Virus record (IMG/VR): IMGVR_UViG_3300036884_000676
DNA: 64,000 bases
Reading direction: 5' to 3' (one strand)
Origin: a virus
Taxonomy: Duplodnaviria > Heunggongvirae > Uroviricota > Caudoviricetes
The position numbers and the translations under genes were made by a program. The number at the start of each line of letters is the position of its first letter. Within the stretch, counting starts at the first letter, position 1. Below the pieces are notes generated by a model. The model did no database searches. It saw only the letters and a list, made by a program, of their open reading frames with translations, and was not told the origin of the DNA. Shown here piece after piece: positions 9,030-45,365 of the stretch.

Positions 9030-10387
9030 ATGATTACCAGTTTTAAAATATTCGAAAGTTCATTCAAACAATTATCTATTCCAGTAGTTAATAGATATGT
9101 TTATCATTCTTCTAATCCAATATTTAGGAAATCAATATTAGAAAAAGGTTTGATACCAAAAAAAGGGGACAAAGAATTGGAGAAGATCATTATGGTAAAG
9201 CTATATTTGTCACTAATTCAGATAAGAAAAAAGATTGGTTTGATTCGACCTATGATGACGATGTTTATAAGATTGATACAACAAAGACAAATAATTTATG
9301 GTATAAGGATCTAAATATGTATTCAAAAAGCATAGGATCTGATATTTATATTTTAACATTTGAACCTATTCCTCCAGAATCCATAGAATTAATTTATAAG
9401 GGGAGTGGAAATGATAAACTAAAAAGAAATTGGAGAAAAAATAGAATTGTTGAAGAATTAGATTTAAAATCAAATCCATTAATATTTTGGCACGGAACAG
9501 CTAGTCAAGATTTAAGAGGAGGACTTAGTGGTTTACACTTAGGTACTTATGAAGCAGCCAAGATAGCATTAGAAGCAACAATAGGGATTCCAGTAAAAGG
9601 AGAATGGGATGGGAAAAGAGAATATGGGAAAACAAAACTATCTGGTAAAAAAAGATTAAGAACAGGAGAAAAAGGTAAATATCGTATTTCTGGATATAAT
9701 TGTGACATACCAGATGATGATTTTTTTCCAGTAGATAATCCATATAAAGCAAAATATTCAAATGGAGAAGAAATTTCTTTGAAATGTAAACCAATTATTT
9801 TTCCTTGTAAAATTGTTGGACCAATGACAAACACGATTCACAATCCACATTCTGATGATATGGCCAATTCAATGATGAAAGGACAATTAAAAAAAGGGAA
9901 TGCTAAAAAAGGTTATTATTATATAAATGATGTGGAAGATTCAGGATCGATTTCAGTAGTAGTTCCAAATTATAAACATATAGAAATTATGAAAAATGTA
10001 TCGGAAAATGTTACACCAAAAACGAGGATTGAAGATGAAATAGATCGTCTGATGGATAAGGGGTATAAAAATCTTACTCCAGATGAACAGGATTTTTTAA
10101 AAAATCCATATAAATCAACTGAAGAACCAAAAGAAGAACCAAAAAAAGAAATTTTGAAATATTATAGTATAGCTGAAGATTTCTTTCGTAGAGTCTTATC
10201 AACAGATGTCAGGAACTATGAATTAAATGATAATCTTGATATTTTTGATATTGTAAAAGATGATAATGAAGCTTTTGATGTTGCCAATACAATCTATTAT
10301 AAATATGGTATTCAAATAGATCCTGAAAACAACGATGAATTTAAATTAGTTAATATATTCAAGAAAATTAATAGTAAAATCAAATAA
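9030..10387 (+). CDS. Multi-domain ART/Tpt1-like protein split by a -1 frameshift at A7G4 (9158-9168)
   Basis: YHSS...SILEKGL domain continues in the -1 frame (GQRIGEDHYGKAIF...) without a stop into ORF 9317; second FWHGT...GLHLGT domain. Confidence 0.65.
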
Positions 10388-10390
10388 AAA

Positions 10391-10502
10391 ACTCCAACAG
10401 GGTTGCACCCTGATTCTGGGAATGTTACTGGATTTCTCCACCCAGCATCACATCTTGCTGACTTTTCAGACCTTTGTAGTTTACCTGCAATTGGATTGGA
10501 GT
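10391..10502 (-). ncRNA. Unassigned GC-rich multi-hairpin RNA candidate
   Basis: Terminal ACUCCAA/UUGGAGU helix enclosing CUGA-AAAG-UCAG, CUGGG/CCCAG with UGGA-GAAA-UCCA, and CAGGG-UGCAA-CCCUG. Confidence 0.5.
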
Positions 10503-10859: not shown

Positions 10860-12080
10860 ATGGATAAGTATAGTTTCCTTGACCAAGACCAATACAAGTT
10901 TACGATGATGCAGGCCGTCATTCGACTTTTTCCAAATTTAATAGTCAGATACAAATTCATTAATCGTGGAAAGACAGTTTGGCCAGAGGGAATGGCTCAA
11001 AAACTCAGAGAACGATTGAAACGATTTTCCGAGGAAGCAATTCTTACAAAAGAAGAATTGGAATATCTTTCTGGAATCCGTTTTTTCCTTCCATTCTTCC
11101 TTTGGGTTCTTTCAAAATATCGTTTCGATGTAAGTGAAGTTCATGTTACCGATAATATTGACGATACCTATGTTGAGGGATACTGGTGGAGAACAATCCT
11201 TTGGGAATGTATATTTTTATCAATGTTATCTGAGTTATATCACGAGATGACAGGTCATAAACTTCCCGAAAGAAGTATCCTTACCAAACTTAATATGAGT
11301 AAAGGGTGGGATTTTTATAAAAACGACATCAATTTCGTTGAAGCTGGTTTCCGCCGTAGGTTTTCTTTCGATAACCAAGATTATGTTATCAATGATTTGA
11401 TTAAATCCTCAAAAAGTTGTCTTATCGGTACAAGTAATGTATATTTCGCTAAAAAATACAATCTGATACCAATCGGGACTGTCGCTCACGAATGGTACAT
11501 GGCTCATTCAGCTATGTTCGGATATCATGAAGCAAACCGTAAATCATTAGAAGATTGGATCAGGGTTTACAATGGAGATTTGGGTACGGTATTACCCGAC
11601 ACTTTCACATCAAAGGCATTTTTCAACATTTTCGATACACACTTCGCTAAATTGTTTGATGGGTTCAGACAAGATAGTGGTGATCCCTTTATCATCGGTC
11701 ATTTGGGTCTTGATAATTATTACAGGACAATTCATGATAAACATATAATTCAGTCAAAGTCAGTTATTTTTAGTAACGCCTTGGATAATCTCAAATCAAT
11801 CCTTGAAATCAGTGATGAATTCAAAAAAGAACTTATTACCCGTTTCATGATTGGAACTTGGTTAACTTGTGATATTCCTATCATTTCGGATGAATCGAAG
11901 TCTGTTGATTTTTCTACTATGGAAAAAATAAAACCATTAAACATTGTCATGAAATTATCTCATGTGTTTATTGATGGTGTATGGATTCCTGTTGTTAAAT
12001 TGGGAGATGGTAGTGGGGAGAAATATACAGGTGATCCCAATCAGATTGATTTAGCAAAAAGAATTTTAAATATTAAGTAA
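10860..12080 (+). CDS. pncB: Nicotinate phosphoribosyltransferase
   Basis: LDQDQYKFTM, EAGFRRRFS, GTSNV, GTVAHEW, PDTF, RQDSGDP, LNIVMK, KLGD. Confidence 0.92.
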   Translation: MDKYSFLDQDQYKFTMMQAVIRLFPNLIVRYKFINRGKTVWPEGMAQKLRERLKRFSEEAILTKEELEYLSGIRFFLPFFLWVLSKYRFDVSEVHVTDNIDDTYVEGYWWRTILWECIFLSMLSELYHEMTGHKLPERSILTKLNMSKGWDFYKNDINFVEAGFRRRFSFDNQDYVINDLIKSSKSCLIGTSNVYFAKKYNLIPIGTVAHEWYMAHSAMFGYHEANRKSLEDWIRVYNGDLGTVLPDTFTSKAFFNIFDTHFAKLFDGFRQDSGDPFIIGHLGLDNYYRTIHDKHIIQSKSVIFSNALDNLKSILEISDEFKKELITRFMIGTWLTCDIPIISDESKSVDFSTMEKIKPLNIVMKLSHVFIDGVWIPVVKLGDGSGEKYTGDPNQIDLAKRILNIK

Positions 12081-27308: not shown

Positions 27309-29354
27309 ATGAAAAAACTCGCAATTATTTTTATGTCATTACTATTTGTAGTAATGGTTGGTTATTCTCAGAAATTCAATCCTGATTCGGGATACAGATT
27401 AACAAAGGATACCTTACAATTAAATGAGGTTACTATCAGTTCCTTTCTTCCATACCAAGCAACAACCTTGATGCCAATCACTTTTAAGAATTTATATAAA
27501 GCTGATTTGGGATTGAAAAATTATGGTCAAGAACCAAGTAGGATTTTAAATACCACTCCATCTATAACCACTTATTCGGAATCAGGTGGTGATTGGGGTT
27601 ATTCTTATATAAGATTAAGAGGTATTGATCAAACCAGAATAAACACCACTCTTAATGGTGTTCCAATGAATGAACCAGAGGATCAAGGATGTTATTTCTC
27701 AAATTATCCTGATTTTCTTCAGTCTGTTGATATGTTACAAATACAGAGAGGAACAGGAATGACTAAAAATGGGTCAGCCAGTTATGTTGGAAGTATGAAT
27801 TTCGAATCATATAAACCATCTACATCAAGTGTAGGGGCCTTTTTCGGAGCTGGATCATTCGGATCAACCAAAATTTCAATGAATACTGAACAAAATTGGA
27901 AAAAAGGTGGGTTATATGCTTCATTTTCTGACCTTGAAACAAAAGGTTATAAATATCATTCTGGTAATCATTCCAGAAGTGCTTTTCTTGTGGGAAATTA
28001 TACAACTGGAAGAAATCAATTTAAATTTGTTGGTTTTGCTGGTGAACAAATGAACCAATTAGCTTGGTTGGGTGTTCCAATAGATAGTATCAATTTAGAC
28101 CGTAGATATAACACTTGTACCACTCGTGAAAATGATCATTTTAATCAATATCATTTGCAATTTCATCACACCTATATTATAGATAATAAATCCAGATTTA
28201 ATTATTGTGTCTATTATAATTATTTGAATGGTTTCTATACTTATGATGGAATTCATAATGGAACATGGGATACTATATCATCTGGTAAATATAATTTATA
28301 TGCATATCATCTTTATTCTAACTTCTTAGGTACTAATGTAAACTATTATATTAAACTTGGACCATTGGATTTTTATACAGGGGTTAATGGTTCTAAGTAT
28401 GATAGGGAACATCATGGAACAACAAATGATATCTATACTTACAAAAATACAGGATTCAGAGATGATTTAAGTGGATTTGTTAAAGGTATTTTAAACGCTG
28501 GAAGTTTCAATTTTTATGGTGATGTTCAATATCGTTATACTACTTTTGTTTATAATGGTGATGTTTATCTACAACATTTTATTTGGAATTTTCTGAATTA
28601 TAGTGTTGGTGTTGAATATAAAGCCAAACACAACATCCTTTATTATTCCATTGGTAAAACACATCGAGAACCTATTCGTAATGATATGTTTGGTGGTTAT
28701 GATAATCTATCGTCTGATCCTCTTGGAAAAGCTGTTTTTTATGATTTAAAACCAGAATCAGTATTGGATCAGGAATTTGGCTATCGTTATATCATAGGAA
28801 ATTTAAATTTGAACATCAATCTATATTATATGTTATTCAAAGATGAATTAGTATTAACGGGAGCTTACGGGCCAACAGGATTACCACTTCATGAAAATGT
28901 AGATAACAGTTTCAGGTCAGGATTTGAATTCGATTTTAAATACAGATGGAAATTTGGATTAACATTACTTCAAAATGTATCCTATAATTATAGTAAAATA
29001 ACATGGACAAATAAACAAACAACTCCTGTCTTAACACCAGAATGGCTATCAAATACTGAAGTAAATTATAATTACAAATGGTTTATAATCGGTTTGAGTG
29101 GTAGGTATCAAAGTTGGTCTTATATTGATCAAAGAAACAACTTCACCATTCCAAGTTTTTATACACTGAATGCTATGATTGGATTAAAATGGTCATGGGG
29201 AGAATGGGATATTTATTTGAATAACATAACTGATCAAAAAACTTTATCGAGTGGTATGGTTTCTGGTGATGGGACTCCTTATAATCAATTTATTCCTCTG
29301 TATTATGTGAATGCACCATTTAATTTCTTTACTGGACTTAAATTTAAAATGTAA
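27309..29354 (+). CDS. TonB-dependent outer-membrane receptor
   Basis: Signal peptide, TonB-box-like LNEVTIS, plug IRLRGIDQTRINTTLNGVPMN, C-terminal FFTGLKFKM. Confidence 0.9.
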   Translation: MKKLAIIFMSLLFVVMVGYSQKFNPDSGYRLTKDTLQLNEVTISSFLPYQATTLMPITFKNLYKADLGLKNYGQEPSRILNTTPSITTYSESGGDWGYSYIRLRGIDQTRINTTLNGVPMNEPEDQGCYFSNYPDFLQSVDMLQIQRGTGMTKNGSASYVGSMNFESYKPSTSSVGAFFGAGSFGSTKISMNTEQNWKKGGLYASFSDLETKGYKYHSGNHSRSAFLVGNYTTGRNQFKFVGFAGEQMNQLAWLGVPIDSINLDRRYNTCTTRENDHFNQYHLQFHHTYIIDNKSRFNYCVYYNYLNGFYTYDGIHNGTWDTISSGKYNLYAYHLYSNFLGTNVNYYIKLGPLDFYTGVNGSKYDREHHGTTNDIYTYKNTGFRDDLSGFVKGILNAGSFNFYGDVQYRYTTFVYNGDVYLQHFIWNFLNYSVGVEYKAKHNILYYSIGKTHREPIRNDMFGGYDNLSSDPLGKAVFYDLKPESVLDQEFGYRYIIGNLNLNINLYYMLFKDELVLTGAYGPTGLPLHENVDNSFRSGFEFDFKYRWKFGLTLLQNVSYNYSKITWTNKQTTPVLTPEWLSNTEVNYNYKWFIIGLSGRYQSWSYIDQRNNFTIPSFYTLNAMIGLKWSWGEWDIYLNNITDQKTLSSGMVSGDGTPYNQFIPLYYVNAPFNFFTGLKFKM

Positions 29355-30773: not shown

Positions 30774-30904
30774 GAGTGTATTAGTGTAACGAAAGCACAG
30801 GCTGTTTGATGTTAGAGTAAGTTTTAGACGGCGGTCTTGGTCATTAGATTGACAAAACTGAAATATCGTAGGTCGGATGAGGGTTCAAATCCCTCATACA
30901 TTCC
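30774..30904 (+). ncRNA. tRNA-like RNA whose anticodon loop is replaced by a ~55-60-nt structured insert
   Basis: 8-bp acceptor GAGUGUAU/AUACAUUC, D arm GUG/CAC, T arm GAGGG-UUCAAAU-CCCUC; no assignable anticodon. Confidence 0.65.
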
Positions 30905-31260: not shown

Positions 31261-31431
31261 ATGATTATGACACAGAACATCCAAAATATGATTATTAATC
31301 AGATACCCGGTAAAAATACCGATTGGATGAACTTTGTCTATAACGAATATAGAAAAAACCCAATCGGAAACGATTGGGTTTTTTTGTTTTATATGTCCAC
31401 CATAGTTTTTAACTGGTGTTCTTTGAAATAA
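31261..31431 (+). CDS. Met/Ile/Gln/Asn-rich leader peptide (MIMTQNIQNMIINQIPGK...)
   Basis: 14 of the first 15 codons encode M, I, Q or N; overlaps antiterminator and terminator. Confidence 0.75.
   Translation: MIMTQNIQNMIINQIPGKNTDWMNFVYNEYRKNPIGNDWVFLFYMSTIVFNWCSLK
31358..31385 (+). terminator. Attenuator terminator ACCCAAUCG-GAAA-CGAUUGGGU plus U-run
   Basis: Perfect 9-bp stem; competing strand CCGAUUGG at 31319-31326. Confidence 0.85.
31417..31428 (+). promoter_or_regulatory. boxA-like antitermination element TGTTCTTTGAAA; also 31878-31888 (+) and 45368-45378 (-)
   Basis: Matches rrn boxA consensus; found only at tRNA operons in this window. Confidence 0.55.
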
Positions 31432-31508: not shown

Positions 31509-31886
31509 ATGGAAGATTTAAAAAAATTAGCGGATGATCTGAGTAATCTCACCGTATTAGAGTGTTACCAGTTAGCTAAGATAATGAAAGAAGAATACGG
31601 AATAGAATCAAATACAAAAATTGTTGGTGTGAATGTATCACCAGTTCCAACTAAGGTAGTTGAAATTGAAAAAACAAGTTTTGATGTGATTCTAAAATCA
31701 GCAGGAACAACCAACAAACTTGGTGTTATCAAATCCATCAAAGAAATGACAGGACAAAGTTTATTGGAAATTAAGAATCTCGTTGATAATGCACCAGCGA
31801 AACTAAAAGAAAATGTAAGTAAAGATGAAGCTATGTCTTTACTGAATATTCTGAAAGAATTAGGTGCAGAAATTGAAGTTCTTTGA
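31509..31886 (+). CDS. rplL: Ribosomal protein bL12 (L7/L12)
   Basis: LSNLTVLE...LAK.MKEEYGI; EKTSFDVIL; KLGVIK; KE.VSKDEA...LKELGAEIEV. Confidence 0.95.
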   Translation: MEDLKKLADDLSNLTVLECYQLAKIMKEEYGIESNTKIVGVNVSPVPTKVVEIEKTSFDVILKSAGTTNKLGVIKSIKEMTGQSLLEIKNLVDNAPAKLKENVSKDEAMSLLNILKELGAEIEVL

Positions 31887-31899
31887 AAATAATAAAAAA

Positions 31900-32025
31900 T
31901 GTAGTAGCGAGTTTGAGTGTTACTTCGTAGCTCAACAGTCGAGCATCAATCAGTTAAATTGAAAGTTGTGGGTGCGATTCCCACCGAACCCGAAAGGGTA
32001 ATATCACTCAATGATTATCTCTACA
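31900..32025 (+). ncRNA. tRNA-Asn(GUU)-like domain whose acceptor is embedded in a long closed stem
   Basis: D, anticodon (UCAAU-CAGUUAA-AUUGA) and T arms present; 3' acceptor strand interrupted by a CCC-GAAA-GGG hairpin. Confidence 0.6.
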
Positions 32026-32035
32026 TTTTTTTAAT

Positions 32036-32113
32036 GGGTGTGTAGCTCAGTAGCGTTAGAGCGCGACACTGATAATGTCGAGGTCGTAGGTTCAAGTCCT
32101 ACCATACCCACCA
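32036..32113 (+). tRNA. tRNA-Ile(GAU), canonical, CCA encoded
   Basis: Full cloverleaf. Confidence 0.95.
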
Positions 32114-32123
32114 AAAATAACAC

Positions 32124-32205
32124 TGTGTCGTACGCAGCCGATCCTGATAAGATCGAGAACTTGTAACTGGTGTTGAAAATGTGGGTTCGAATCCCACCGG
32201 CACAA
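32124..32205 (+). tRNA. D-armless tRNA-Ile(GAU)-like RNA with long variable region
   Basis: Acceptor UGUGUCG/CGGCACA-A, anticodon arm CGAUC-CUGAUAA-GAUCG, T arm; only 8 nt where the D arm should be. Confidence 0.7.
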
Positions 32206-32214
32206 CAAAAATTT

Positions 32215-32286
32215 GGGTTGGTAGTACTAATGAAAAACGGCGGCCTGTTAAGCCGCGAGATGTGGGTTCAAGTCCCACCCGGCCCT
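32215..32286 (+). tRNA. tRNA-Asn(GUU) with a weak D arm lacking GG
   Basis: GCGGC-CUGUUAA-GCCGC; GGGUUGG/CCGGCCC. Confidence 0.8.
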
Positions 32287-32295
32287 CAATATTAT

Positions 32296-32369
32296 TCCTC
32301 AGTAGCTCAGCTGGTTAGAGCATTTGACTGTTAATCAAAGGGTCACAGGTCCAAATCCTGTCTGGGGAG
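32296..32369 (+). tRNA. tRNA-Asn(GUU); T-loop is UCCAAAU
   Basis: Full cloverleaf. Confidence 0.9.
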
Positions 32370-32375
32370 CAAAAT

Positions 32376-32451
32376 TCGGAATGTTTGTCTGTGATTGGGT
32401 GCACCACACAGATAATAAAGGAAAAATGTGGTTCAATTCCACCATTCCGAG
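32376..32451 (+). ncRNA. tRNA-like RNA with acceptor and T arm plus one long central hairpin; no anticodon assignable
   Basis: UCGGAAU/AUUCCGA, GUGG-UUCAAUU-CCAC, UCUGUG/CACAGA. Confidence 0.5.
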
Positions 32452-32459
32452 CAAAAATA

Positions 32460-32551
32460 GGGAGTGTAGCTGATTTGGTTTAGCGGCAGACCGTTAATCT
32501 GTGACTGAAAATATTGAAATAAAGTTGGTTCGACCCCATCCTCTCCCGCCA
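32460..32551 (+). tRNA. tRNA-Asn(GUU) with a 21-nt AU-rich variable region, CCA encoded
   Basis: GCAGA-CCGUUAA-UCUGU then GACUGAAAAUAUUGAAAUAAA. Confidence 0.8.
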
Positions 32552-32559
32552 GTACATAT

Positions 32560-32638
32560 TGTGGTGTATCCCCCATGTCTTATAAACATGCATTAAAAGG
32601 GTAATAGCGTGTATGTGGGTTCGAGTCCCACCACCACA
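32560..32638 (+). tRNA. D-armless tRNA-Ile(UAU)-like RNA with long variable region
   Basis: UGUGGUG/CACCACA-A, CAUGU-CUUAUAA-ACAUG, T arm; 6-nt D replacement UAUCCC. Confidence 0.7.
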
Positions 32639-32644
32639 ACAAAT

Positions 32645-32716
32645 GGTCGGGTAAGCTAACGGTTAAACTGGATGTCTTATACACATCTTTTAAGAGTTCG
32701 AATCTCTTCCTGACTA
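32645..32716 (+). tRNA. tRNA-Ile(UAU)
   Basis: Cloverleaf, GAUGU-CUUAUAC-ACAUC. Confidence 0.88.
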
Positions 32717-32721
32717 CAAAT

Positions 32722-32797
32722 GGCGAGATAGCTCAGACGGTTTTAGAGCGTCGGATTCATAACCCGGAGGTCGAGGGTTCAACTCCCTCTCTCGCTA
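32722..32797 (+). tRNA. tRNA-Met(CAU), elongator-like
   Basis: Cloverleaf, UCGGA-UUCAUAA-CCCGG. Confidence 0.9.
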
Positions 32798-32805
32798 CCC
32801 AAAAT

Positions 32806-32877
32806 AGTCCTATGGCGTAACGCGAAGCGTGACTCCCCTTGAAGGAGATGGTACTGGTTCGAATCCAGTTAGGACTG
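32806..32877 (+). tRNA. tRNA-Gln(UUG)
   Basis: AGUCCUA/UAGGACU-G; loop CCUUGAA. Confidence 0.82.
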
Positions 32878-32882
32878 CAAAT

Positions 32883-32968
32883 ATCAATGTGAACGGAATG
32901 GTTATCGTAGAGGTCTCATAAGCCTTTCAACTCGTTGAGTTGTGGTGGTTCGAATCCACTCATTGATA
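32883..32968 (+). tRNA. tRNA with CAU anticodon (Met or Ile2) and a long variable arm
   Basis: GAGGU-CUCAUAA-GCCUU plus CAACUC-GUU-GAGUUG arm. Confidence 0.8.
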
Positions 32969-32974
32969 CAAAAT

Positions 32975-33045
32975 AGTCCTGTGGTGTAACGGTAGCATGC
33001 GAGCCTTTGAAGCTTTGGGTACAGATTCGAATTCTGTCAGGACTG
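32975..33045 (+). tRNA. tRNA-Gln(UUG)
   Basis: Cloverleaf, loop CUUUGAA. Confidence 0.85.
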
Positions 33046-33051
33046 CAAAAT

Positions 33052-33124
33052 TGTTCTGTCGTATAATTGGCAGTACAGCACCCTCTGAAGGTGTATGGTG
33101 TAGGTTCGAGTCCTACTGGAACAG
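33052..33124 (+). tRNA. tRNA-Gln(CUG)
   Basis: GCACC-CUCUGAA-GGUGU. Confidence 0.9.
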
Positions 33125-33129
33125 CAAAT

Positions 33130-33201
33130 GGTTCTGTGGTGTAATGCGTAGCACGAGTGATTCTGAATCACTTGGTTAAGGTTCGAATCCTTACAGAACT
33201 A
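33130..33201 (+). tRNA. tRNA-Gln(CUG)
   Basis: AGUGA-UUCUGAA-UCACU. Confidence 0.9.
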
Positions 33202-33202
33202 C

Positions 33203-42277: not shown

Positions 42278-42568
42278 ATGAGAAATTACAAATTAGAAAA
42301 ATTACAAGCCGGAGAAAGTTTCGTTACCAGTGAAAAAGGTAATTCCATGTCACCAATTATTAAGTCGGGACAAAAACATAAACTTGTTCCCGCCACTTGG
42401 AGAGATGTAGATGTAGATGATATAGTCTATTGTAAAGTCAAAGGAAACTTCTACACTCACCTTGTAAAAGCAAAAAATGAAGATAAGGGTTGCTTAATAG
42501 GTAACAACAAAGGTGGAGTTAACGGATGGACTAAACAAGTCTATGGTAAGGTTGTAAAAATCCTTTAA
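42278..42568 (+). CDS. S24/S26 peptidase-like small protein
   Basis: GNSMSPIIKSG...DIV....H.VK. Confidence 0.65.
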   Translation: MRNYKLEKLQAGESFVTSEKGNSMSPIIKSGQKHKLVPATWRDVDVDDIVYCKVKGNFYTHLVKAKNEDKGCLIGNNKGGVNGWTKQVYGKVVKIL

Positions 42569-43824
42569 ATATAAATATTCAGAATTTCATTCAGTTTAAT
42601 TTTGGTTTCCTCATTCAGTGATTTCCCCTTATTTTCATTATACAGAATCATAAAGGAACTTACCACTTTATTGAATTTGAAACTATCCGTATAACCAAAT
42701 ACAGTTTCCTTAAACTTTTCAATATCAACAGTTTCCTTACCAGTTCTTGACATCCATTCATCCCATTTTTTGAAGAATCTGATGATACCATTGATGTTCT
42801 GGTCTGACCATTGACCACCATCGAAATAATGTCCGATGAACATCAGATAAAACCTCAGAACCTTTGGATCATAGTTATCTGGATTAACAATATTTCCTTT
42901 ACTTTTGGCCATCTTGATTCCATTATTCAGAATCATTCCCTGATGCACCACTTTTTTAAAAGGTTCTTCCTCACTGATCATCCCAATATCATACAGGAAC
43001 ATATTAATAAAACGAGCATATATCAGGTGCATGCAAGCGTGTTCACTTCCCCCGATGTACAGATCAACTTGTTTATATTTATCTTTACTACACAGTTCAT
43101 TTTCGTTGTACGAATCACAATAACGGATAAAATAGAAACTACTATCTACGAAAGTATCCAGAGTATCAGTCTCACCTTCAATTGGAATAGGACATCCCCA
43201 ACTTCTTTGTCTACTGACACACCAATCATGTTGATTCTCCAGCCAATCTCTTTGAGAATTGATTGTTTTCTTTGGGTAATCAATCCAATCCAGATTTTTT
43301 ATCAGTCGGTCTTTATATTCGGTGATTTTAAAATACCATTGTTCCATTTGACGAATTTCAATGGTCGTATTACATCTATCACATTTACCATCTTTGACCT
43401 GTTCACGAGCCAGAACAGTTCCACAACTTGGACACCAATTTACTTCACCCCAAGCTTTGTAAGCCAGTCCATGTTCTTTCAGTTTGATAAATATCCATTG
43501 TGTCCACTTCTGGTAAGATGGATCTGAAGTAATTACTTTTTCTTCAAAAGAAGTGTCCATTCTTTCCATCTGTTTACGGAAATTCTCAATGTTTTCATAG
43601 GTAACTTCTCTGGGATCTCTATTGACTGATTTGGCGTAATTTTCAGCTGGAAGTCCAAAGGAATCATACCCAAACGGTTGAAAAACTTTAACTCCTTTAT
43701 ATCTTTGGTATCGACAATAACTGTCTACGATAGCGTAATTATAATAATGTCCGATGTGCAGTCCGTTTCCGCTCGGATAAGGAAACATGACAACCACCAT
43801 TTTTTCATTTTTTATGTCGTTCAT
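42565..43824 (-). CDS. leuS: Minimal leucyl-tRNA synthetase (419 aa)
   Basis: MFPYPSG..LHIGH, FGLPAEN, WCPSC..VLA.EQV, DWCVSRQRSWG, DTFVDSS, YIGG.EHA.MHL.YARF, KMAKSKGN; CP1, Leu-specific and C-terminal domains absent. Confidence 0.9.
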   Translation of the reverse strand: MNDIKNEKMVVVMFPYPSGNGLHIGHYYNYAIVDSYCRYQRYKGVKVFQPFGYDSFGLPAENYAKSVNRDPREVTYENIENFRKQMERMDTSFEEKVITSDPSYQKWTQWIFIKLKEHGLAYKAWGEVNWCPSCGTVLAREQVKDGKCDRCNTTIEIRQMEQWYFKITEYKDRLIKNLDWIDYPKKTINSQRDWLENQHDWCVSRQRSWGCPIPIEGETDTLDTFVDSSFYFIRYCDSYNENELCSKDKYKQVDLYIGGSEHACMHLIYARFINMFLYDIGMISEEEPFKKVVHQGMILNNGIKMAKSKGNIVNPDNYDPKVLRFYLMFIGHYFDGGQWSDQNINGIIRFFKKWDEWMSRTGKETVDIEKFKETVFGYTDSFKFNKVVSSFMILYNENKGKSLNEETKIKLNEILNIYI

Positions 43825-44584: not shown

Positions 44585-44633
44585 AGATTTTTATTTCTAT
44601 ATATAAAAATTTATGTGTAATGTTTCATAGTTG

Positions 44634-44707
44634 TAACCCCACCCGGACTTGAACCGAGATATTTAGTTTCTAAAACTAACGCCGCTAACCAATTAGGCCA
44701 TGGGGTC
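44634..44707 (-). tRNA. tRNA with Leu(UAG) anticodon but no variable arm
   Basis: UUAGU-UUUAGAA-ACUAA, 4-nt variable loop, A73. Confidence 0.85.
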
Positions 44708-44717
44708 ATTATTTTAG

Positions 44718-44791
44718 TAGTTCTGTTCGGACTTGAACCGAAATATTTGGTTTTTGAAACCAACGCCGCTAACCAATTAGGCCACAGAACC
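44718..44791 (-). tRNA. tRNA with Leu(CAA) anticodon but no variable arm
   Basis: UUGGU-UUCAAAA-ACCAA, 4-nt variable loop, A73. Confidence 0.85.
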
Positions 44792-44796
44792 TTTTG

Positions 44797-44881
44797 TATC
44801 GATGGTGGGACTCGAACCCACACCCTCGTAATGAGGAACGGCTTCTGAGGCCGTCGCGTCTACCAATTCCGCCACACCGAC
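44797..44881 (-). tRNA. tRNA-Leu(CAG), class II
   Basis: Canonical cloverleaf. Confidence 0.93.
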
Positions 44882-44933
44882 AAATTTCAAATATTTACCA
44901 GTTTTTTGAAAAACTGTTCAAAATTTGATTTTG

Positions 44934-45007
44934 TAGCACCTGTCGGATTCGAACCGACAAACTTGGATTTTAAGACCAATATGGTTGCTCTATTACATCA
45001 AGGTGCC
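44934..45007 (-). tRNA. tRNA with Leu(UAA) anticodon but no variable arm
   Basis: UUGGU-CUUAAAA-UCCAA, 4-nt variable loop, A73. Confidence 0.82.
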
Positions 45008-45012
45008 ATTTG

Positions 45013-45096
45013 TAGCCTCTGTGGGAATCGAACCCACACGGTCTTTCGACCACTGGATTTTGAGTCCAGAGCGTCTACCAATTCCGCCAAGAGGCC
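45013..45096 (-). tRNA. tRNA-Leu(CAA), class II
   Basis: Canonical cloverleaf. Confidence 0.94.
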
Positions 45097-45101
45097 ATTT
45101 G

Positions 45102-45186
45102 TGGGAGTTGATGGAGTTGCACCACCCGAGCCCTGAGGACAACAGATTTACAGTCTGCCCCGCTACTACTTACGGAATAAACTCCC
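45102..45186 (-). tRNA. tRNA-Tyr(GUA), class II
   Basis: CAGA-CUGUAAA-UCUG, long variable arm. Confidence 0.9.
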
Positions 45187-45190
45187 AAAG

Positions 45191-45275
45191 TGACCAAGGT
45201 GGGATTCGAACCCACACGGGCGTAAAGCCCAACGGATTTTAAGTCCGTCGCGTCTACCAGTTCCGCCACAAGGCC
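45191..45275 (-). tRNA. tRNA-Leu(UAA), class II, with two U-U mismatches in the acceptor stem
   Basis: Cloverleaf. Confidence 0.88.
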
Positions 45276-45283
45276 AATTTCAG

Positions 45284-45365
45284 TGTCCATAGGGGGACTC
45301 GAACCCCCACGCCTTTCGACAATAGTTTCTTAGGCTATCGCGTCTACCAGTTCCGCCATACGGAC
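45284..45365 (-). tRNA. tRNA-Leu(AAG), class II
   Basis: AUAGC-CUAAGAA-ACUAU; A34. Confidence 0.88.

Follow-up and report, generated by a model that had tools for sequence, protein, structure and literature searches.

Candidate non-cloverleaf isoleucine tRNAs stand beside canonical same-anticodon genes in a phage tRNA array

All known bacterial tRNAs were described in a 2024 paper as cloverleaves, with structural diversity in the cytosol limited to the size of the arms (PMC11551756), and a 2020 review of non-canonical tRNAs leaves phages unmentioned (PMC7609411). Described departures include the D-armless mitochondrial (mt) tRNAs, such as mammalian mt-tRNA-Ser(AGY) and nematode mt-tRNA-Ser, which have no D hairpin and a short connector between acceptor and anticodon arms, make no D-loop/T-loop contact, have a short variable region and adopt a flexible Y-shape served by adapted partner proteins (PMC7609411, PMC9427863, PMC11551756). 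A fully D-armless tRNA is also accepted by the HisRS, EF-Tu and ribosomes of Escherichia coli (PMC11551756). Here we examine a stretch of 64,000 nucleotides (nt), hereafter the window, that covers positions 124537-188536 of the contig of IMG/VR virus record IMGVR_UViG_3300036884_000676 (Caudoviricetes; 210,983 bp, ~30% G+C). A tRNA array at ~31911-33202, on one strand and with tRNA genes for Asn, Ile, Met and Gln only, contains two genes with isoleucine anticodons, here called the GAU twin and the UAU twin, that adjoin canonical genes of the same anticodon and are built on a different, rewired plan. Judging from sequence comparison, the twins are probably working isoleucine elongator tRNAs of a phage-restricted, unpublished, non-cloverleaf class, the GAU twin serving AUU and AUC codons and the UAU twin AUA.

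A sequence-only reading of the window had proposed that each canonical Ile tRNA is accompanied by a D-armless gene of the same anticodon that keeps the acceptor, anticodon and T arms and A73. Both same-anticodon pairs are present in the sequence, the canonical partners being recognized by ARAGORN and by Rfam; on the same strand, 10 nt separate the end of canonical Ile(GAU) from the GAU twin, and 5 nt separate the UAU twin from the start of canonical Ile(UAU) (Table 1). The spacers of the twins are 5-10 nt long and of CAAA type, and the same spacers also follow canonical tRNAs of the array on their 3′ side. The proposed outline of the genes holds as well: both have A73, U33, a purine at position 37, a consensus T loop and acceptor, anticodon and T arms of standard size, with no D stem-loop hairpin between position 9 and the anticodon stem, where only 7-8 nt are found, and with variable regions of 25 nt in the GAU twin and 24 nt in the UAU twin, whose acceptor is TGTGGTG/CACCACA. 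Features relevant to isoleucyl-tRNA synthetase (IleRS) are likewise present in both (loops CTGATAA and CTTATAA, A37, A38 and A73). ARAGORN makes no call at either gene. The Rfam tRNA model returns no tRNA match to the GAU twin at E up to 10, and it aligns the UAU twin at 35.3 bits (gathering threshold 29) with the D arm deleted (15 positions reduced to 4 nt) and a 21-nt insert in the variable region. A relaxed structural scan finds two such elements in the window, compared with a mean of 0.23 in 30 shuffled windows that approximately preserve dinucleotide composition.

The twins belong to a family that extends well outside this record. The first covariance model of rewired genes, R1, has 11 members at 46-85 bits in this record and three huge-phage genomes, with canonical tRNAs at no more than 36 bits; the closest public records are the 'uncultured phage' genomes LR756501/3, LR756502 and LR745206, with sizes of 635-735 kb. 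A motif scan of IMG/VR yielded 77 loci containing 122 R1 matches, and 102 distinct genes were left after duplicates and genes with poor stems were dropped. To avoid circularity, a second model, R2, was built from 54 IMG/VR genes alone with this genome excluded; the twins score 70.3 and 57.9 bits with this model from other phages, against a highest score of 30.4 bits for any canonical tRNA in four arrays of this genome. Family counts given here use these 102 genes or the 101 of them with an anchorable D-loop-like motif. The 101 members form 87 clusters at 85% identity, with a median pairwise identity of 61%. A covariance-model search in other phages was what the sequence-only reading had called for, together with the argument that the architecture reflects design rather than decay, and the ~100 distinct phage genes recovered vindicate that argument, since they conserve the architecture with compensatory changes in every stem. 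The notion of an architecture peculiar to isoleucine has to be given up, as three quarters of the members are Arg genes (Arg 76, Ile 24, other 2). The anticodons are UCU (36), ACG (19), UCG (15), CCU (6), GAU (13), UAU (9), CAU (2) and two oddballs, and a scan of the whole record adds two rewired genes outside the window, Arg(UCU) and Arg(ACG).

Most likely, then, about a hundred phage Arg and Ile tRNAs share a predicted non-cloverleaf build that gene finders miss. ARAGORN calls just 4 of 112 rewired members, Rfam has no separate family for the build, and our literature search found no description of it. When one genome of each of 185,579 prokaryote species was scanned for the family motif, four occurrences were found, all on metagenome-assembled contigs and three of them inside ARAGORN-called tRNA arrays that resemble phage ones. 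Cultured phages carrying rewired genes have hosts in three phyla, with carriers on Caulobacter, Microbacterium and Maribacter, and in the three cultured phages that we checked the genes are unannotated in GenBank or overlapped by a 'hypothetical protein' coding sequence (CDS). The rewired gene of Caulobacter phage Ccr10 (KY555142.1, 51785-51864) is an Arg(ACG) gene. In Maribacter phage Panino (PP540027.1), the rewired Arg(UCU) gene (28066-28145) lies under such a CDS beside a very large 'tRNA methyltransferase' gene, and in Microbacterium phage Pumpernickel (NC_073468.1), genes for an RtcB-like RNA ligase and a homing endonuclease are located ~2 kb upstream of the rewired Arg(UCU) gene (100456-100533).

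The breadth of the family also bears on whether the twins could be pseudogenes, that is, decaying duplicates of the adjoining canonical Ile genes. Each twin does adjoin a same-anticodon gene, and the related huge phage LR745206 carries a copy whose T loop is broken and whose acceptor has a mismatch, but the twins and their neighbors have no stem sequences in common, all stems of the twins are intact, the independent family model matches them at E below 1e-12, and 87 sequence clusters share the architecture, with compensatory changes among them. We give this explanation almost no credence, and recent duplication of the canonical neighbors in particular is rejected for the lack of shared stem sequences. 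The LR745206 copy (L007:1414-1492; LR745206.1 387977-388055) is a rewired GAU gene whose 5′ half is identical to an intact LR756502 gene and whose T loop reads CTCAGAA; it is probably a decaying copy.

The family follows one plan from 5′ to 3′: the acceptor strand, U8 A9 (invariant in 101/101 members), a connector of 5-6 nt, the anticodon arm, a spacer of 2-8 nt, the bases x3x2x1, the motif UAAC(U)GG, one base, 0-5 further bases, UG, AAAAU and the T arm. Stem pairing was counted on MAFFT alignments made without fitting to the structure. Pairing there reaches 95-99% in the acceptor, anticodon and T stems, and each pair is represented by 4-6 pair types. One alignment (A4) offset the 5′ acceptor strand of the 7-nt and 8-nt connector classes by one column, and the acceptor was recounted on a one-class alignment (A5). 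Helix X2, formed by the connector with x1-x3, is paired at its two core positions in 83/83 and 80/83 sequences, with C-G, U-A, A-U and G-C pairs at one and G-C, C-G, A-U, U-A and G-U pairs at the other, and its third pair forms in about half of the sequences. Connector cells pair at a rate of 82.5% in the correct register versus 19-45% when shifted, and for the whole structure 93.5-94.2% of cells pair versus 32-47% when the partner is slid by 1-3 columns; none of 500 shuffles reaches the observed structure score. Members with an 8-nt connector have an additional helix, X1, in which two connector bases pair with the two bases before UG (G-C 22 and A-U 8 at one position, C-G 24 and U-A 5 at the other). 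The third base of the motif and the last base of the variable region form a pair that resembles the 15/48 pair of ordinary tRNAs (A-U 91, G-C 9 and A-A 1, n = 101; 83/83 paired on the MAFFT alignment, as A-U 78 and G-C 5). The A-C combination at this pair was permitted by the motif scan and never observed, and the members with G-C here include Arg as well as Ile genes and represent both classes of connector. This pair crosses X1 in the way that 15-48 crosses the D stem in normal tRNA. The UAAC(U)GG motif is a bulge flanked by both partner strands of one continuous connector, and its sequence is the D-loop consensus (A14, R15, G18, G19). Of the two twins, the GAU twin has the UAR(N)1-3GG motif 3′ of its anticodon arm, as TAACTGG, and the UAU twin has TAATAG-C at this place, with a single G.

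By this covariation, the D loop and D-stem-like pairing are kept in the predicted fold, and the anticodon arm is enclosed by them and does not follow them. The term "D-armless" fits a secondary-structure drawing and not the molecule as predicted, because the D-loop motif, the D-stem-like pairing and the 15/48-like pair are all present. The comparison with mitochondria made in the sequence-only reading was the wrong analogy for a similar set of reasons: the family retains a D-loop-like GG motif and the 15/48-like pair, both shifted to a place 3′ of the anticodon arm, as well as a canonical T loop. Its proposal that the variable region pairs back to the connector is upheld in both twins, and the UAUCCC/GGGUA helix that it drew for the UAU twin contains the conserved CCC/GGG. 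The register that it drew for the GAU twin, ACGCAG/CUGGUGU, is not the conserved one; the family pairs CAG with the TTG that lies 5′ of TAACTGG and leaves TAACTGG unpaired. We rejected the ACGCAG/CUGGUGU helix, whose energy is fine (-18.9 kcal/mol), on the grounds that relatives have TAAC(U)GG without a matching connector and that the helix would bury a motif that is unpaired in the family. The CCC/GGG X2 helix of the UAU twin recurs in its relatives L064:3146-3222 and L063:3281-3357, with which the UAU twin groups as a divergent short-tail sub-type.

A truly D-armless, flexible Y-shaped tRNA of the mitochondrial tRNA-Ser(AGY) kind, in which the variable region would be a loose linker and D loop and T loop would make no contact, seems highly unlikely on the same evidence. 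It would account for the missing D hairpin, for the Rfam alignment of the UAU twin with its D arm simply deleted and for the unpaired connector in minimum-free-energy folds, and E. coli is able to use a D-armless tRNA (PMC11551756). However, the pairs between connector and variable region covary, as does the 15/48-like pair, which crosses X1 as it would in a normal core, and both UAAC(U)GG and the canonical TTCRANT T loop are conserved, whereas in the D-armless tRNAs of mitochondria the variable region is short and the T loop eroded (PMC7609411).

The view of the twins as working tRNAs draws support from the bases that the family has kept. Directly after GG, all Arg members have A (76/76) and most Ile members have U (21/24; n = 101); A20 is the main determinant of bacterial arginyl-tRNA synthetase (ArgRS) and unique to that family (PMC9976931), and the IleRS determinants include G16, D20 and D21 of the D loop (PMC9976931). 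Isoleucine identity further involves an anticodon that is GAU or a modified U or C followed by AU, A37 (t6A), A38 and A73 (PMC9976931); 24/24 Ile members carry A73, an A occupies position 37 with three exceptions among the 102 genes, and U33, on which the members were selected, is found in all. An encoded CCA directly follows N73 in 38/101 members, against ~1.6% by chance. As read from these sequences, the family retains features that matter solely for charging and use.

Several observations weigh against interpreting the twins in this way. The motif used to scan IMG/VR prescribed the letters of TAAC, GG, the tail and the T arm, which are therefore conserved in part by construction. The UAU twin has a single G followed by C in TAATAG-C, where its sub-type relatives have TAATAGG or TAATTGG, and the GAU twin has an 8-nt connector yet forms no X1 past the invariant U8-G and A9-U. 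The nearest-neighbor energy of the GAU twin is -16.8 kcal/mol with X2/X1 and -19.6 kcal/mol without them, and energies barely favor X2 in the UAU twin. Thermodynamic folding recovers the three arms and is uninformative for the connector, and RNAfold misfolds even the D arm of canonical Ile(GAU); because minimum-free-energy folds are unreliable for the connector, we relied on covariation. A third of the Arg members have U73 in place of the usual A/G73. No ArgRS (PF00750) is found in the 211-kb record or in three complete huge-phage relatives, and the record encodes no full-length IleRS-type enzyme, its sole PF00133 match being the 419-amino acid (aa) core of a leucyl-tRNA synthetase (LeuRS) at 42565-43824. 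Finally, expression, processing, charging and decoding are predictions for every member of the family.

Because the record holds neither an ArgRS nor a full-length IleRS-type enzyme, charging would depend on host enzymes. The idea of a dedicated phage synthetase, as part of an orthogonal IleRS or ArgRS pair, was considered and is unsupported, given the absence of PF00750 and a PF00133 match to a LeuRS core only. We envisage that X2, and X1 where present, would stack on the anticodon stem to form a vertical arm of about normal length, and that the GG bulge would dock on the T loop to give the usual L-shape; an L of normal size is expected because the stack of anticodon stem, X2 and X1 amounts to ~10-12 layers and the T loop is intact. 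The RNA would be excised from the array, receive CCA and be charged by host IleRS (host ArgRS for the Arg members), after which the charged twin would be used on the ribosome like its canonical neighbor. Our best guess is that the twins are a second source of this decoding capacity, different in structure, that may survive attack on ordinary tRNAs, for example by a host tRNA-targeting defense.

Table 1. Positions of the twin genes and their parts, their canonical partners and further unusual tRNA genes. Positions are those of the window unless marked "record", which refers to the record contig (G000:C1).
Feature	Position	Strand	Details
GAU twin (rewired tRNA, anticodon GAU)	32124..32205	+	82 nt including A73; R2 70.3 bits, E 1.6e-16
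GAU twin, acceptor TGTGTCG/CGGCACA	3′ strand within 32181..32204	+	7 pairs, one of them G-U
GAU twin, connector TACGCAGC, 8 nt	32131..32138	+	begins with U8 A9; CAG 32135-32137 is the 5′ strand of helix X2 (covariance-model alignment)
GAU twin, anticodon arm CGATC-CTGATAA-GATCG	32139..32155	+	anticodon GAT 32146-32148; U33 and A37 present
GAU twin, 3′ strand of helix X2, TTG	32161..32163	+	C-G, A-U and G-U with 32135-32137
GAU twin, D-loop-like TAACTGG, then T	32164..32171	+	A32166 15-like; GG 18/19-like; T32171 20-like
GAU twin, last variable-region base T	32180	+	48-like partner of A32166
GAU twin, T arm GTGGG-TTCGAAT-CCCAC and acceptor 3′ strand CGGCACA	32181..32204	+	A73 at 32205
UAU twin (rewired tRNA, anticodon UAU)	32560..32639	+	80 nt including A73; R2 57.9 bits, E 3.8e-13
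UAU twin, connector TATCCCC, 7 nt	32567..32573	+	CCC 32570-32572 is the 5′ strand of helix X2
UAU twin, anticodon arm CATGT-CTTATAA-ACATG	32574..32590	+	anticodon TAT 32581-32583
UAU twin, 3′ strand of helix X2, GGG	32599..32601	+	partner of CCC 32570-32572
UAU twin, D-loop-like TAATAG and short tail CGTGTAT	32602..32614	+	A32604/T32614 is the 15/48-like pair
UAU twin, T arm GTGGG-TTCGAGT-CCCAC and acceptor 3′ strand CACCACA	32615..32638	+	A73 at 32639
Canonical tRNA-Ile(GAU)	32036..32113	+	ARAGORN; Rfam RF00005 70.8 bits; CCA encoded; R2 (rewired-family model) just 21.7 bits
Canonical tRNA-Ile(UAU)	32645..32717	+	ARAGORN; Rfam 53.3 bits
Rewired Arg(UCU)	record 11839-11916	-	canonical same-anticodon gene near, c11717-11789
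Rewired Arg(ACG)	record 72864-72945	-	canonical same-anticodon gene near, c72554-72628
Class-II-like tRNAs with class I anticodons	32883-32969; record 10356-10445, 70817-70903, 71243-71328, 73120-73203
Class-II-like tRNAs with class I anticodons, continued	record 90879-90963, 91234-91316, 72675-72760, 72767-72852

The twin arrangement from which the sequence-only reading started is real in this record, where 4/4 rewired genes have a canonical same-anticodon gene nearby, and it recurs in the related huge phages (5/7 rewired genes, at distances of ≤6 nt in LR745206, 250 nt in LR756501 and 0.3-1.1 kb in LR756502), but it is not a trait of the family. Elsewhere, a canonical tRNA of the same anticodon occurs in the fetched locus (median 8.7 kb and 9 tRNAs) for 8 of 112 members and is absent for 104; the rewired gene is the only Arg(ACG) gene in the fetched tRNA array of Caulobacter phage Ccr10 and the only Arg(UCU) gene in that of Maribacter phage Panino. 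Within the huge phages, both builds are kept over the divergence of the genomes as far as the sequences tell, and their joint retention argues against simple redundancy.

Pairs of builds are found for other amino acids across the record, in which the Rfam tRNA model has 74 matches and ARAGORN reports 74 tRNA genes. These include Lys, Glu, Thr, Val, Met, His and Pro tRNAs with long variable arms, and Leu genes of 75 nt and Tyr genes of 73 nt that lie beside normal class II ones. The class-II-like tRNAs with class I anticodons listed in Table 1 (Met, Val, Thr, Glu, Lys UUU/CUU and Pro UGG/CGG) have a 3-bp D stem and a long variable hairpin, and most of them adjoin a normal-length gene of the same anticodon; Caulobacter phage Ccr10 likewise has annotated Lys tRNAs of 87 and 91 nt. 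The LeuRS catalytic core of 419 aa is encoded on the minus strand (best match TIGR00396 leuS_bact; PDB 1h3n, E 1.4e-83); it is about half the length of a bacterial LeuRS, and the editing and C-terminal domains are seemingly absent. Beside it, and separated by a GIY-YIG gene, is a minus-strand tRNA array (44633-45365) in which class II Leu genes of 83-86 nt are mixed with 75-nt Leu(UAG, CAA, UAA) genes that have no long variable arm.

The array that holds the twins begins 25 nt downstream of a gene for a homolog of ribosomal protein bL12 (31509-31886; Pfam Ribosomal_L12 and N-terminal dimerization domain), upstream of which lies a leader-like open reading frame (ORF; 31261-31431) that begins MIMTQNIQNMIINQI and has ATT, ATC and ATA among its codons. 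Of its first 15 codons, one specifies Thr and the other 14 specify the amino acids that the array serves (Met, Ile, Gln and Asn). A strong intrinsic terminator at 31352-31385 consists of 15 bp followed by a T run, with a z-score of -6.0 for the folded region, and Rfam Thr_leader matches weakly at 31304-31387 (24.3 bits). Because the leader ORF runs through this terminator, the arrangement is not a textbook trp-type attenuator; a unit of leader ORF and terminator that responds to slow decoding of Met, Ile, Gln and Asn codons would fit the sequence and is not proven by it. The array contains other unusual RNAs. The RNA at 31911-32010 resembles tRNA-Asn(GUU) and has a D arm, an anticodon arm and a T arm (39.9 bits with the Rfam tRNA model, positions 4-67); a CCC-GAAA-GGG hairpin interrupts its 3′ acceptor strand, and both its ends extend into a long duplex. 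At 32376-32455 is a tRNA-like RNA, called by no tool, whose perfect acceptor of 8 bp and T stem of 4 bp make up an 8/4 branch; it has a connector of 4 nt, a 6-bp hairpin with a 13-nt loop replaces the anticodon arm and UAAUAAAGG...AAAAU precedes the T arm. Three Asn(GUU) genes have three different builds: one with a nearly unpaired D stem (32215-32287), one canonical (32296-32370) and a third (32460-32551) that is 92 nt long, encodes CCA and combines an imperfect T stem with a variable region of 22 nt. No relatives of the RNAs at 31911-32010 and 32376-32455, or of the Asn genes of 73 nt and 92 nt, turned up when all fetched loci were searched by BLAST. Outside the array, at 30775-30903, is a 129-nt tRNA-like gene (Rfam tRNA 30.5 bits) to which ARAGORN assigns a UUA anticodon and a 37-nt insert in the anticodon loop. 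A TonB-dependent receptor-like gene within the phage record (27222-29354; Plug and beta-barrel domains) hints at a Gram-negative host.

Such surroundings raise the question of whether the twins act in translation at all or are instead folded tRNA-like decoys or regulators that display an Ile anticodon loop and a tRNA elbow, soak up a host anticodon nuclease, a modification enzyme or a sensor and thereby shield the canonical twin. Canonical genes 5-10 nt away already supply the anticodons of the twins, the RNAs at 31911-32010 and 32376-32455 are non-decoding tRNA-like RNAs of the same array, and a stress-response unit would be in keeping with an operon that is sorted by amino acid and preceded by a leader ORF and a terminator. 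A decoy, however, needs no synthetase determinants, yet the A20-like base is kept in every Arg member, A73 in every Ile member and the encoded CCA in 38 of the 101, and in most phages the rewired gene alone bears its anticodon in the locus; we regard a role outside translation as distinctly unlikely. A bolder view, which we put forward tentatively and consider doubtful, takes the rewired tRNAs as a phage-private second decoding set, retained beside canonical twins because its altered core hides it from an agent disabling ordinary tRNAs; the disabling agent could be a host anticodon nuclease, another tRNA-targeting defense or the phage's own attack on host tRNAs. On this view, judged from the leader ORF that begins MIMTQNIQNMIINQI and the terminator, the Asn/Ile/Met/Gln operon may be switched on when those codons decode slowly, and would act as a circuit that senses tRNA depletion and rescues decoding.

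The cloverleaf-only picture of tRNA would have to be revised if phages on hosts from at least three bacterial phyla share a conserved, natural class of non-cloverleaf tRNAs, and such a class would mean that the L-shape can arise from a different chain order. The annotation blind spot also implies that phage tRNA repertoires are under-counted, because ARAGORN calls so few rewired genes and because those that we checked in three cultured phages go unannotated or lie under a CDS. The rewired build would offer a ready alternative scaffold for engineered tRNAs, and the twin arrangement raises the question of what this build does that the adjoining canonical one cannot. Set against known systems, the rewired genes share with canonical tRNA-Ile and tRNA-Arg (Rfam RF00005) the 7-bp acceptor, U8-A9, the 5-bp anticodon stem, the 7-nt loop with U33 and A37, the TTCRANT T loop, the discriminator base and an often encoded CCA, as well as the D-loop consensus (A14-R15...G18G19-N20), covariation of the R15:Y48 type and class-specific positions 20 and 73. 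They differ in chain order: no D hairpin separates position 9 from position 26, and the D-stem-like helix encloses the anticodon arm, because the D-loop motif follows that arm on its 3′ side together with the strand or strands to which the connector pairs. Unlike the mitochondrial D-armless tRNAs, the phage genes have a D-loop motif, canonical TTCGAAT/TTCGAGT loops, a covarying 15/48-like pair and a variable region of 24-25 nt. Class II tRNAs (Leu, Ser, Tyr) also have more than 20 nt between the anticodon and T arms, but their extra region is a self-contained hairpin in addition to a normal D arm, whereas the rewired region pairs with the 5′ connector and carries the D-loop motif. The 8/4 and 9/3 tRNAs (allo-tRNA, tRNA-Sec; PMC5389517) are likewise natural, conserved, non-standard forms found via metagenomes; in those cloverleaves the stem lengths are altered and the order of the arms is kept, whereas in the rewired class it is the order of the segments that changes.

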